DNA of 64,000 bases from Saccostrea echinata (taxonomy: Eukaryota), in contig NW_026889750.1 in NCBI RefSeq assembly GCF_033153115.1, positions 17,484,001 through 17,548,000 on the forward strand. The letters run 5' to 3'. This document shows positions 34,137 through 45,004 of the stretch, in pieces. Positions within the stretch are counted from its first letter, which is position 1, and each line of letters opens with the position of its first letter. The translations under genes were made by a program, and so were the position numbers. The notes below the pieces were generated by a model. It was not told the origin of the DNA. It did not search any database and worked only from the letters and a program-made list of their open reading frames with translations.

Positions 34137-34293
34137 ACTTCCGGTACCATGAGCAGCGTACCGTGAACAGTATTCATAGTATATAAATGGCGGACAATTC
34201 TTTTCTAGATTGATATTTCTATAATTTCAGTGCTCCTAAAGATTTCTTGATACGGATTACTCATACAGAGGAGAAACATTGTTTTTTGTGAGT
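34137..34293 (+). promoter_or_regulatory. ETS + YY1-like promoter/first-exon module, copy 2, upstream of the exon array
   Basis: ACTTCCGGT (34137-34145), AAATGGCGG (34185-34193), donor GTGAGT at 34288. Confidence 0.55.
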
Positions 34294-35343
34294 ACTTTTG
34301 ATGTAAAATGTTGCTTTTGCATGTGATATGTATTGCGTAACACGGAGAGGAATTTTTAAGTGGGTTTAACGGTAAAGTTAAACGAACAGTCATAAAGTGG
34401 CCAGTGGAAAGGATGATGTGCCAAAACTACGTTTTGCTGCTTCTTTTTGTACGACGAATTATATTTATTCTGCAACGATTTTAATAGTTTTCAAACAAGA
34501 ATGAATAAATACGACGCCTTTTGAATAAGCTAAAAATAAATTTCAGTATCTATCCCTCTAATCATGCTTCTACAAATGCTATTCATTTTTTCTGATAAAT
34601 TTAAAAAGGTATGCATGTTTAAAAATGAACCTGGGCGTGGCATTCATGTCCTATGAACATTGAACCCTGGGCGTGGCATTCATATCCTATGGACACATTT
34701 CAAGTTTTATCTATACCACGGAATTTTGAAATTGATTTCTATTTAAGCTACTGACTTTCTGGTTGAAATTGTCTATTCTTGTTAATATAATTTTGTTATC
34801 TATGTCATCTGTATAAACCTGGATGTGGAAACTAAATTCATATACCCTCTAATATTTTGTATAAGTGGATTCACATGCATTCCTTGGGGCATATAGTTTT
34901 TTTTTTCACATCTGTCTTTCATCTTTCTTTCCTTGTTCGTTAGTCTTTCCATTTGTCCGTCTGTCACACTTTGCTTTAAACTCTCCTCATTTTCTGTCAA
35001 TTTATCTTACCAAATTCTTGAATGAATACTTTACACAACTTTATACCCAGATACGTCTCTGTGAGAGAATTTGAATCATACTTACTTAAGATATCATATG
35101 TAAATTTACTGTCTCAAAACAATGAGATTTAATTCATTTAGCTGCTAGTTTAAGCTAAGATAATTCTAGTTATAATAATAATAAAAAAAAAAAAAAAAAC
35201 AGTACTATTTAAGATGAATGTCAATTAAAAATAAAAATTATCCTGATCTTTTTTCACTGGAATTTTTATTAACTGTTGTTTTTATTATAACTTAATCAAA
35301 GCATTTAGATTTCTCCTTTGACATCCTGACTCTGTTTTAACAG

Positions 35344-41300: not shown

Positions 41301-44300
41301 CAAGAGACATAAGGCCGGCCAAAGATGAAGGGGAAGCCATTGTCAAGCTATGAACAGAAATGAAGATTGGCCAAAGTGGTATGTAATATATACTGCATCT
41401 GTTAGAATTTTGATTTCCTGTTGTTTAAAATCCAACTTGATTAAAGCAGTTAGGTTTCTCCTTTGACTTCCTGACTCTCTATGTTAACAGGAGGATGGTT
41501 ACAAAAGCCTGGATCCCAATGTGAGGAACAACTTCCATGATTGTCAGCATGGGGTGGGGTGTAGGGTAGGGAATTATCTGCAGCCAAGCAGAGAAGAAAG
41601 GGTAAGATTCGTGTGATCAATCATGTCATGTCCAGATTTTGTTGGCTCTTTGTCAATTTAATTACTTGACATCTGGGTATTTTTATTAGCAAGAAGAAGT
41701 TCAGGACCACCTGAAGGACGTGGTGAGGAGGAGTCTCTCTCTCATTCAGCAGCAGCCATCATTGAAAAATGAGGTAAGATTTGGGCTCTTCTTCTTGCAC
41801 TCTTTCCCCTTTGTTTACTTGTCAATTGATGTTGACCTAGTTGGGCTTTGAACTCTTGACTTCCAATTGACAGGATGCAGAATAGAAGGACCCATTCCAA
41901 GGAACAGAAGAAGGACCCAAGTCGTCATCCAGGGAACCTCACAGAGAAGTTTTTTTTTCCTTTTGATTAACAACTTAGCCTCTTTTTCTGTCTCTTATCC
42001 CCTACCTACTCTAATATGACTAACTATCTCCATTCCCTTCCTCTACCCCTTCTTTTACTTCCTTTCCCTAGCTAACTGTCCCCGTTTGCTAACTTTTTTT
42101 CCACTAATTTTTTTTATTCTGTTTTTGTGAATTTCTGTAATATTTGTAATTGATTGATTTATTACTAATCTTGTGTAAGTTGTATATTTTCAGGAAGCCA
42201 GACGAGGGACAACACAAGAGACATAAGGCCGGCCAAAGATGAAGGGGAAGCCATTGTCAAGCTATTAACAGAAATGAAGATTGGCCAAAGTGGTATGTAA
42301 TATATACTGCATCTGTTAGAATTTTGATTTCCTGTTGTTTAAAATCCAACTTGATTAAAGCAGTTAGGTTTCTCTTTTGACTTCCTGACTCTCTATGTTA
42401 ACAGGAGGATGGTTACAAAAGCCTGGATCCCAATGTGAGGAACAACTTCCATGATTGTCAGCATGGGGTGGGGTGTAGGGCAGGGAATTATCTGCAGCCA
42501 AGCAGAGAAGAAAGGGTAAGATTCGTGTGATCAATCATGTCATGTCCAGATTTTGTTGGCTCTTTGTCAGTTTAATTACTTGACATCTGGGTATTTTTAT
42601 TAGCAAGAAGAAGTTCAGGACCACCTGAAGGACGTGGTGAGGAGGAGTCTCTCTCTCATTCAGCAGCAGCCATCATTGAAAAATGAGGTAAGATTTGGGC
42701 TCTTCTTCTTCCACTCTTTCCCCTTTGTTTACTTGTCAATTGATGTTGACCTAGTTGGGCTTTGAACTCTTGACTTCCAATTGACAGGATGCAGAATAGA
42801 AGGACCCATTCCAAGGAACAGAAGAAGGACCCAAGTCGTCATCCAGGGAACCTCACAGAGAAGTTTTTTTTTCCTTTTGATTAACAACTTAGCCTCTTTT
42901 TCTGTCTCTTATCCCCTACCTACTCTAATATGACTAACTATCTCCATTCCCTTCCTCTACCCCTTCTTTTACTTCCTTTCCCTAGCTAACTGTCCCCGTT
43001 TGCTAACTTATTTTCCACTAATTTTTTTTATTCTGTTTTTGTGAATTTCTGTAATATTTGTAATTGATTGATTTATTACTAATCTTGTGTAAGTTGTATA
43101 TTTTCAGGAAGCCAGACGAGGGACAACACAAGAGACATAAGGCCGGCCAAAGATGAAGTTGTACCCATTGTCAAGCTATGAACAGAAATGAAGATTGGCC
43201 AAAGTGGTATGTAATATATACTGCATCTGTTAGAATTTGATTTCCTGTTGTTTAAAATCCAACTTGATTAAAGCAATTAGTTTTTTCTTTGACTTCCTGA
43301 CTATGTTAACAGGAGGATGGTTACAAAAGCCTGTATCCCAATATGAGGAACAACTTCCATGATTGTCAGCATGGGGTGGGGTGTAGGGCAGGGAATTATC
43401 TGCAGCCAAGCAGAGAAGAAAGGGTAAGATTCCTGTGATCAATCATGTCATGTCCAGATTTTGTTGGCTCTTTGTCAGTTTAATTACTTGACATCTGGGT
43501 ATTTTTATTAGCAAGAAGAAGTTCAGGACCACCTGAAGGACGTGGTGAGGAGGAGTCTCTCTCTCATTCAACTGCAGCCATCATTGAAAAATGAGGTAAG
43601 ATTTGGGCTCTTCTTCTTGCACTCTTTCCCCTTTGTTTACTTGTCAATTGATGTTGACCTAGTTGGGCTTTGAACTCTTGACTTCCAAGACAGGATGCAG
43701 AAGGGAAGGACCCATCCTAAAGAGCAGAAGATGGACCCAGGTTATCATCCAGCGGGCCTCAGAGAGAAGCTTTTTTTATTGATTGTCCTTTCTCTTATTC
43801 TGTCTCCTATCCCCTACCTACTCAAAATGACAGCTATTTTCATCCGTTTTCTTCCTGTCTCTCTGTGTTACCAGGATGATGGTTACGAAAGCCTGGAACC
43901 CATTGTGAGAAACAACTTTCTTGTTTGTGAGAAGGGTGAAACCAGGGAGCCAAGCATAGAAGAGAGGTTAAGATTCGTCCAATAATGTCAGCCCTTTATA
44001 TTTACTGGGCTTTTTCTTTGAGATGAAGGCTTCAAATTCCTATGATATCTTGATATTTTTTATTAGTTGGAGGTGGATAAGGATCACCTGAAGCACATTG
44101 TGAGGAGGAGTCTGTCTCCTATTCACCTGCTGCTATGTATGGAAGATACAGTAAGATTCAGACTCTGTTTCTTGCATGTTTTCATGATATTCTTGTCAGT
44201 TGATGCTTACCTTCATGCAGGTGAATGTCAGATTATGTTACTTAAATTTTCTTATTTGTTGTGTTGAATCACTGTTAATCTTCTGGCACTGTTTTATTTT

Positions 44301-45004
44301 TTCCAGGCACTTGGAAGTGGAACACATGAGGACTGACCAACAGAAGAATAGGAGTCCATTGTAAAGATATGATCAATAGCCAACAGTGGCCAAGGAGGTA
44401 AAACTCTGCATTTGTTGTACTTTTTTTATATTTGTTTTCAATGTTACTTATCAAAGCAGGATACATGTACTTCTATGACCTCCTGACTTTCTTTGTCAAA
44501 AAATTTTCTTAAACAAGTCTCAATCCAAGGTGAAGTTCATCTTCCTCATTTGTCAGGAGGTCTGGAGAGCCAGGATTAAATGCAGGCATGACAGCCAATC
44601 AATGAGCAAACTCTGATTCAATATAACTGAATTTCTTTTGCTTATTATCTTTTGATGGAGATGATGATCTTTCGTCAATTATCTTAAATAAGCATTGCAA
44701 TCAAGGCAGACCTCTATGACGAGGTGAAGAGGTTATCATCACCTTCTAGGAAATGCATCGTGAGCTTGGATGAACTGCTGCCAACTGCTGAAGTACTGGT
44801 AAGGAAAATGTATAATGTTAACAATCAGCAAACTATTTTTTGTCGATTTATAAATTAAAATACCGTTCAATTTCGTTTACAATTTTTCTTTTTAAACAGA
44901 CAAAGAGTAAGGCTGCCCTTGATCTCAAGATGAAGAAGAGACCCTTAACAAGCAGCAAAAGTGAGGAGATATCATAGATCAATCAGACAAGCCAAGAAGT
45001 GACA
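35344..45004 (+). pseudogene. Multi-exon gene or pseudogene of mostly phase-0 exons, amplified by the tandem array; product unknown
   Basis: Purine-rich blocks bounded by polypyrimidine-AG and GTAAGA/GTATGT. Unit-1 cassettes are 99, 111, 84 and 75 nt. The 111- and 84-nt cassettes are open in frame 0 in every unit and in the diverged copies; other cassettes contain stops. Confidence 0.6.
35800..43690 (+). repeat. ~910-bp tandem array (8 full units + 1 partial, highly similar), each with four exon-like cassettes
   Basis: GAAGCCAGACGAGG starts at 35821, 36733, 37643, 38546, 39467, 40377, 41280, 42194 and 43108; diverged flanking copies at ~35250-35800 and ~43690-44400. Confidence 0.97.

Follow-up and report, generated by a model that had tools for sequence, protein, structure and literature searches.

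Organization of the tandem array

A tandem array of exon-like cassettes was identified on the plus strand of a 64,000-nucleotide stretch of oyster DNA (contig NW_026889750.1, positions 17,484,001 to 17,548,000), which is referred to below as the window and in whose own numbering all positions are given. The array extends from 35821 to 43843 and consists of nine units in the order a, intron, b, intron, c, intron, d and spacer. An initial annotation, made from the letters alone, had proposed nine copies of a block of about 910 bp, and this was confirmed with a spacing of 903-921 bp between units. Cassette a starts at 35821, 36733, 37643, 38546, 39467, 40377, 41280, 42194 and 43108 in units 1 to 9, respectively. 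The cassettes are 99 (a), 111 (b), 84 (c) and 75 nt (d) in length and each is preceded by AG; a is followed by the donor GTATGT, b and c by GTAAGA, and d by GTTTTT. The annotated positions, lengths and splice signals of the cassettes were reproduced, and the splice sites are intact in nine of nine units. The end of the b frame of unit 1 had been misread, QPGREER being encoded instead of QPSREER. In unit 1, cassette a is located at 35821-35919, exon b at 36032-36142, exon c at 36231-36314, and cassette d together with a pyrimidine-rich spacer (71% T+C) at 36415-36732. The cassettes contain 49% GC and 64% purine, and the DNA between cassettes 34% GC and 35% purine.

Pairwise identity among units 1 to 8 is between 97.9 and 100%. 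For unit 9 it is 93-94% overall, because divergence sets in after its cassette c. There is no substitution between units 2 and 5, while units 3 and 6 are 99.2% alike and units 4, 7 and 8 are 99.1-99.3% alike, so that similarity follows a period-3 pattern across the array. The units also carry distinct mosaics of variants over 50 variable columns. The period-3 pattern is that expected from unequal crossing-over, which we infer to be the likely mechanism.

The array is flanked on both sides by its own diverged copies. Upstream, a first copy of exon b (b0, 35344-35454), 80% identical to b, is followed by a deleted fusion of c and d, which has lost its acceptor AG, and by a spacer leading into unit 1 (35543-35820). 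Downstream, diverged copies of b, c and a (b', c' and a') follow unit 9. The head-to-tail homogenised monomers are those of a satellite. In place of the long, non-genic and unprocessed array of a satellite, however, there are nine units spliced into flanking unique exons, as described below.

Splicing of the array transcript

Splicing was analyzed with contigs, not reads, of four sequencing runs (X1 to X4), which were classified as probable RNA by the tool's guess and represent two samples of one study. The runs were chosen by words shared with the region 43090-45060 (shares 0.09-0.24), and their contigs were aligned to 42900-50950, a region that holds one unit and the unique 3' region, with the first exon lying outside. 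The joints described here are the 15 displayed of 48, together with 12 of the 16 rows of a between-letters table. Six of the 15 joints are GT..AG introns at predicted or corrected sites. The joint from a to b of unit 9 (43206 to 43313) was detected in all four runs, as were those from c' to a' (to 44307) and from a' to the first unique exon e1, while the joints from b to c of unit 9, from b' to c' (to 44067) and from e1 to the second unique exon e2 (44798 to 44900) were each detected in two of the four. Three further joints correspond to the c-d, b'-c' and e1-e2 introns with variant letters. In the between-letters table, the c-d joint was found at 43595 to 43694 in run X1 (one of four runs), and the joints from e2 to e3 and from e3 to e4 in run X4. 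The other six displayed joints (for instance 43134 to 43798) were put aside as likely belonging to other repeat copies, having non-canonical ends and short sides of 21-42 letters. The prediction that an exon-intron block had been amplified within a spliced transcription unit was thus borne out by GT..AG junctions in contigs of probable-RNA runs, which join the predicted AG and GT sites, and the contigs probably represent a transcribed and spliced RNA longer than 200 nt.

The unit was originally described as a four-exon cassette. Splicing from a to b, b to c and c to d does take place at the predicted sites, but the number of exons per unit is probably three. Spacer, cassette a and spliced b were found together on one contig in record 9 of run X2 and in record 23 of run X4; record 15 of run X3 joins the spacer to a without a splice, and record 1 of run X1 crosses the end of the last d (d9) into b' without splicing. 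Because these contigs pass from the d-a spacer into a, and over the end of d9, without a joint, each unit most likely contributes three exons to the RNA, namely b, c and a combined exon of d, spacer and a (413-426 nt). In unit 1, cassette a should accordingly be the 3' part of such a combined exon, with its donor in use, and cassette d of unit 1 with its spacer is probably exonic and continuous with the next a; exons b and c of this unit correspond to those whose a-b, b-c and c-d joints were observed on unit 9. Cassette d probably does not act as a donor, its donor being bridged in unit 9 only.

Downstream of the array, b' occupies 43875-43966. Its original donor has mutated to TT, and the GT one base upstream is used instead, resulting in a frame-breaking exon of 92 nt from the old acceptor. 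Exon c' (44067-44150) retains 84 nt and is 69% identical to c. Exon a' (44307-44397), 91 nt long with stops in frames 0 and 1, is joined on both sides in all four runs. The initial annotation had recognized b' and c', but it missed a' and the shifted donor of b'. For the unique exons, its junction between 44798 and 44900 and the TAG within the second exon were correct, but the acceptor of the first lies at 44693 and not near 44706. Exon e1 (44693-44798) is therefore 106 nt long and not in phase 0 in the displayed junction; e2 (44900-45004) is 105 nt long with a single TAG in frame 0. Across a 4.9-kb intron, run X4 gave exon e3 (49902-49996, 95 nt) and the probable last exon e4 (50087-50900), the latter being accompanied by contig pieces up to 50903. 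The joints from e2 to e3 and from e3 to e4 indicate that the transcript reaches about 6 kb past 45004, skipping the 4.9-kb intron. As many as 198 of the 321 contigs of run X1 are less than 95% alike to the window, many contigs of the runs show 85-95% identity, and loose ends carry diverged a-like sequence. These observations indicate that relatives of this locus exist elsewhere.

Coding potential and constraint

Frame 0 of cassettes b and c is open throughout the nine units as well as in the diverged copies b0 (from 35344), b' (from 43875) and c' (from 44067), as first described. Cassette a, said to be closed in every frame, is so in eight of nine units, but a of unit 8 is open in frame 2. Cassette d carries the described TAG in frame 0 and the GTTTTT donor, but its frames 1 and 2 are open. 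In dinucleotide shuffles, frame 0 stays open in 22% of cases for b, 37% for c and about 8% for both, and the chance that a, b and c are all multiples of 3 is about 4%. The open frames and length multiples suggest a coding past, though weakly when taken alone.

A modelled RNA of 6863 nt, including the putative first exon, was used for measuring the reading frames. With the spacer kept, no ATG frame is longer than 86 aa; the maximum is again 86 aa when the GTTTTT donor is used, and 93 aa when d is skipped. A long frame, of 650 aa, arises in silico only when both a and d are skipped in every unit. The supported path takes in a and d with their stops, so that the modules do not form one open frame, and its longest frame does not exceed 86 aa. 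The observed junctions in addition break the frame at b' (92 nt), a' (91 nt) and e1 (106 nt). Thus introns have been kept along with frame-disabling changes, as in unprocessed pseudogenes.

Of the 14 variants that b and c show among the units of the array, 12 are non-synonymous, in agreement with the predominance of such changes noted before. Between diverged copies, the ratio of non-synonymous to synonymous change (omega) in frame 0 was 0.95 for b0/b, 0.68 for b'/b, 0.46 for c'/c, 0.90 for a'/a and 1.32 for d9/d. The test of dN/dS proposed at the outset gave a pooled omega of 0.65 for b0/b, b'/b and c'/c (Fisher p=0.16) and of 0.76 (p=0.32) for all five pairs; in the other frames, pooled b and c gave values of 1.19 and 1.62. 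Around b0, the exon is 80% identical and its flanking introns 78% and 89%, the introns being conserved as well as the exon. As judged from these copies, present coding constraint is not significant.

A related array in a predicted protein

Database searching with the frame of b', c' and e1 yielded a single match among 1.84 billion representatives, XP_061166414.1 (E 4e-22, 18 stretches), a Saccostrea echinata RefSeq model of 1689 aa named 'filaggrin-2-like' that forms a cluster of one. From this match, the window likely derives from a rock oyster. The model was compared with the window as a predicted protein alone, not as DNA. Like the array in the window, it starts with b0 and continues with about 18-19 near-identical a/b/d units, with b and c at the end; identity to the translated window is 32/36 for b, 20/24 for d and 18/31 for a. 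It differs by holding about twice as many copies (about 19 versus nine) and by a frameshift in each of b and a relative to the window, common to its units. Among its 20 b-like segments, 17 pass from frame 0 to frame 1 of the window in mid-exon; d follows in frame 1 after 13 segments, and a after 18. Against a of the window, the a segment of the model passes from frame 1 to frame 0, but it aligns to a' without any shift. The frame-0 core of c is found nowhere in the model, c being omitted except at the end, where it appears in frame 2, and the model continues through the b0 donor into the intron.

The last b of the model is in frame 0, as in the window, and the b frameshift therefore looks derived in the array of the model. 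By the alignment with a', the a frameshift looks derived in the array of the window. As each frameshift is fixed across its own array, the two arrays, orthologous or paralogous, were likely amplified or homogenised separately after the lineages or loci split. Since the model threads other frames, omits c and reads an intron, its long frame is likely to be a prediction artefact or specific to that lineage. The frame switches between the two, together with the pooled omega of 0.65 (p=0.16), do not indicate purifying selection on a conserved frame. An intact paralogue with conserved frames had been sought as a check on the cassettes; only this frame-discordant model was found.

No parent gene was detected by Pfam, protein-representative, word-seeded, Atlas and PDB searches, which are weakened by short, decayed exons. 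Among 30 translated stretches of the window, Pfam gave three weak matches below the cut-off (E 0.034-0.2), and among 20 further stretches only the two exons of PSMD14/Rpn11 (see below) matched. Three Pfam matches to P0001 were rejected as probable repeat artefacts, no stretch passing by itself. Word-seeded searches with the frame of e3 and e4, with the end of P0001 and with the decayed frame of an insert in the e2-e3 intron (see below) gave no match. In PDB, nothing was found for the frames of this insert, and three matches at E 1-2.8 for e3 and e4; Atlas gave no usable match for e4. A metagenome scan with a 25-nt motif of b returned no match, and the 10 pattern matches obtained for P0001 were not confirmed. 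We found no description of this locus in the literature searched; the satellitome monomer lists of PMC8268682 and PMC11136912 may include a related unit.

Putative promoter and CpG pattern

A putative promoter followed by a putative first exon is located at 34137-34288 on the plus strand. As annotated initially, this CpG-rich segment carries an ETS motif (ACTTCCGG) at 34137 and a YY1-like motif at 34185, and ends at a GTGAGT donor at 34289. The observed/expected ratio of CpG is 1.31 over 34100-34520, 0.17 in unit 1 and 0.21 in the tail, with 0.66 across bases 1-33500; the low value of unit 1 against those of the promoter and of bases 1-33500 has a P of about 1e-5. This pattern fits a gene body methylated over the long term behind an unmethylated promoter, although methylation of the repeats may contribute, and the reading of the depletion as gene-body methylation draws on general oyster biology. 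The ETS/YY1 promoter and the first exon with its GTGAGT donor occur a second time at about 32295-32565, 1.8 kb upstream and beyond an assembly gap of 175 N (33527-33701); this copy is 74% identical over 132 bp (paralogue at 32387-32516).

Nature and origin of the locus

With a probability that we put at roughly 65%, the locus produces a spliced non-coding transcript of a decayed multi-exon oyster gene, of which an internal 910-bp block has been copied nine times. Among the three options of the initial annotation, the best fit is a spliced non-coding RNA derived from a dead gene. The transcript likely makes no protein, and a decayed but transcribed gene is accordingly favored over a new repeat protein. 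The locus behaves as a transcribed pseudogene carrying an internal macro-repeat would, although its place in that class is unproven without a parent gene. In the mechanism that we propose, the ancestral gene was presumably coding. RNA polymerase II would start at the putative ETS/YY1 promoter near 34137, three short introns would be removed from each unit, and d, spacer and the next a would stay together as a single exon (about 415 nt); the resulting RNA of about 6.9 kb would contain no ATG frame above 86 aa. Near-identical units would misalign and recombine, shifting the copy number (nine in this array and about 19 in that of the S. echinata model), and unequal crossing-over would spread lineage-specific variants through each array. 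The survival of the splice sites may then be due to the youth and homogenised state of the copies and not to selection on a protein. The RNA most likely has no repeat-dependent function and would likely undergo nonsense-mediated decay or nuclear retention.

Several points weigh against this interpretation. As no parent was found, the designation as a decayed gene depends on exon anatomy, including a frame-0 omega (0.65 versus 1.19 and 1.62) that is non-significant, and b and c have stayed open in all nine units as well as in three diverged copies. Selection could account for the similar amplification in two lineages. The runs are RNA by guess, come from two samples of one study, consist of contigs and have no DNA control. 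In run X1, all 30 of 30 bins have depth, those of introns as well, and retention of the spacer could therefore stem from a partly spliced precursor; moreover, a single contig can combine words of different molecules. Given 33 joints and 294 loose ends outside the displayed set, minor skipping isoforms are possible. The link between promoter and b0 is putative.

Among the alternatives, that of a relic of an accessory gene from a dispersed family of mobile elements or segmental duplications, with an element-derived promoter, is the least doubtful, although still improbable; it concerns origin and is compatible with a decayed, transcribed gene. The many relatives at 85-95% in the runs, the diverged a-like loose ends, the second copy of promoter and first exon (about 32300-32565) and the YY1-like motif in the inverted arms of an element at 45067-45527 argue for it. 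Self-comparison of the window, however, revealed no inverted pair spanning the whole unit, although decayed termini would escape, Pfam gave no notable match in 30 translated stretches, and a stretch resembling Ulp1 sits in a separate, spliced-out insert of 2391 bp. The transposon accessory gene suggested initially thus found no support in domain matches or in terminal repeats flanking the unit, for which each side was searched separately. That the RNA instead functions as a repetitive long non-coding RNA, the nine units being kept by selection as a multivalent scaffold whose spacer binds, for example, splicing factors, in the manner of the Xist or hsr-omega repeats, we consider unlikely. The related array of S. 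echinata, which likewise begins with b0, the intact splice sites, the CpG-rich promoter-like 5' end and the diverged relatives in the same runs (the X1 contigs below 95%) would be in keeping with such a role, but no feature is conserved beyond the introns, no Rfam match at the gathering score was found in the window, and folds of 10 intron and spacer stretches are mostly no better than shuffles (z -2.05 to +1.07).

A copy-number-variable repeat protein, in which a and d would be 'poison' cassettes skipped throughout so that b0 and nine b+c pairs encode 650 aa, was another of the initial suggestions and appears quite improbable. The in-silico b/c-only splice does give a 650-aa ATG frame, b and c are symmetric, in phase 0 and open in all copies, omega for c'/c is 0.46, and a 1689-aa RefSeq model exists for the related array. 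The suggestion is weakened by the splicing of a to b in four of four runs and the observed c-d joint, by the lack of any c-to-b skipping joint among the 15 of 48 joints displayed, by the 12 of 14 non-synonymous variants, and by the S. echinata model, which takes b, d and a in other frames without c; the donor shift of b' would moreover leave a stop with several junctions downstream. Still less probable is it that both frames are used, one block serving as an incubator of repeat proteins, by exon skipping as (b+c)x9 with 650 aa here and in shifted frames as (b+d+a)x18 with 1689 aa in the S. echinata model; if both were translated, a single orthologous locus would give rise to unrelated repeat proteins in sister species. 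We also doubt strongly that the locus is a precursor of PIWI-interacting RNAs (piRNAs), a long spliced or unspliced RNA being cut into piRNAs against other copies of the family. Oyster soma and germline express piRNAs from distinct loci (PMC6128900), and several transposon-like inserts lie in the region, but nothing in the sequence is specific to piRNA origin. Finally, the substitution-free pair of units 2 and 5 and the gap of 175 N could point to an assembly artefact in copy number, with fewer true units or with haplotypes placed end to end; this is very unlikely in view of the distinct mosaic variants over 50 columns and of an independent assembly that predicts a similar, longer array.

Repeated exon-intron units are known from the small-RNA hosts SNHG14 (SNORD115/116) and C19MC. 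Like them, the locus described here would give a non-coding transcript of tandem exon-intron modules, but its introns differ in that no small nucleolar RNA (snoRNA) or microRNA (miRNA) cargo was found. Rfam gave no match at the gathering score in the window and six weak ones in 33710-36760, far below the cut-off (E 0.5-9.9), and the three introns of the unit fold at z -1.47, 0.40 and -0.78 against shuffles. The locus is therefore not a known small-RNA host, and a snoRNA or miRNA host was rejected on these results, an undescribed small RNA being possible. Amplified exon modules are also found in coding genes such as those of the NBPF/Olduvai family and, reportedly, in spider silk genes. The array shares with both internal tandem modules homogenised within a lineage, but these genes keep one open frame, whereas the supported path of the array is closed and frames differ between relatives. 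Oyster genomes are said to contain short dispersed satellite-like arrays, often in Helentrons. The present array is likewise a short euchromatic tandem array but, unlike the Helentron type, is spliced and flanked by its own diverged exons, and no Helentron boundary was identified around it. XIST (PMC12101419) and Drosophila hsr-omega (10.1101/695486) also are long non-coding transcripts with tandem repeats. The repeats of XIST lie within exons and those of hsr-omega downstream of a single intron, whereas the array units each hold three spliced introns. XIST derives from the former protein-coding gene Lnx3 (PMC12101419), and hsr-omega repeats diverge quickly between species (10.1101/695486). 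Both have shown functions and conserved elements, and the array resembles them in outline only, no homology being claimed.

If a decayed, transcribed gene is indeed involved, the locus would be a small but clear case in which an apparent 'satellite' consists of exons and introns amplified within a dead, spliced gene. Such arrays likely yield false low-complexity gene models, for example 'filaggrin-2-like'. An intron-bearing unit without small-RNA cargo, with separate amplification or homogenisation in two lineages, would also provide a natural test of the neutral persistence of splicing and transcription in repeats. Translation of either long frame, or a copy-number-dependent role of the RNA, would make the locus far more important.

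Other features of the window

The e2-e3 intron holds the insert of 2391 bp (47125-49515) mentioned above, with inverted ends CCC...GGG, TC on both sides and subterminal GGCGTA repeats, which resembles non-autonomous EnSpm/CMC elements. A decayed frame at 48484-48900 within the insert is Ulp1-like by eye only, and gave no match in Pfam, PDB or word searches. The idea that it represents the catalytic end of the gene of the array was dropped, because it lies in a separately bounded, spliced-out insert. The short element at 45067-45527, whose inverted arms carry YY1-like motifs, has a CpG ratio of 1.12 and is covered by many diverged contigs.

Upstream, PSMD14/Rpn11 (Pfam JAB and RPN11_C) has its exons on the minus strand between 23831 and about 14450, head-to-head with the array transcript at a distance of about 10 kb; what we take to be its first coding exon was located by a motif. 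Between the two lies an element at 26883-30586 with 485-bp inverted arms, 90% complementary and 2658 bp apart, and a 33-bp triplication at its left end; the frames scanned inside it gave no Pfam match. Downstream of e4, a degenerate 43-49-bp tandem repeat (51015-52235, about 19 core copies, 65% match) is followed by a second, older array at 52355-57668 and 62132-64000, with a period of about 965 bp, 73-88% identity and pyrimidine richness on the plus strand, interrupted at 57670-62130 by about 4.4 kb of unrelated CpG-rich sequence. A Gly/Met-rich stretch of 113 aa, for which Pfam gave no match, is open on the minus strand at 6365-6706 and probably represents an exon of a different gene. Three copies (1918-2216, 5525-5722 and 27878-28176), up to 90% identical, were found of a dispersed repeat that is about 300 bp long and resembles a short interspersed nuclear element in appearance.

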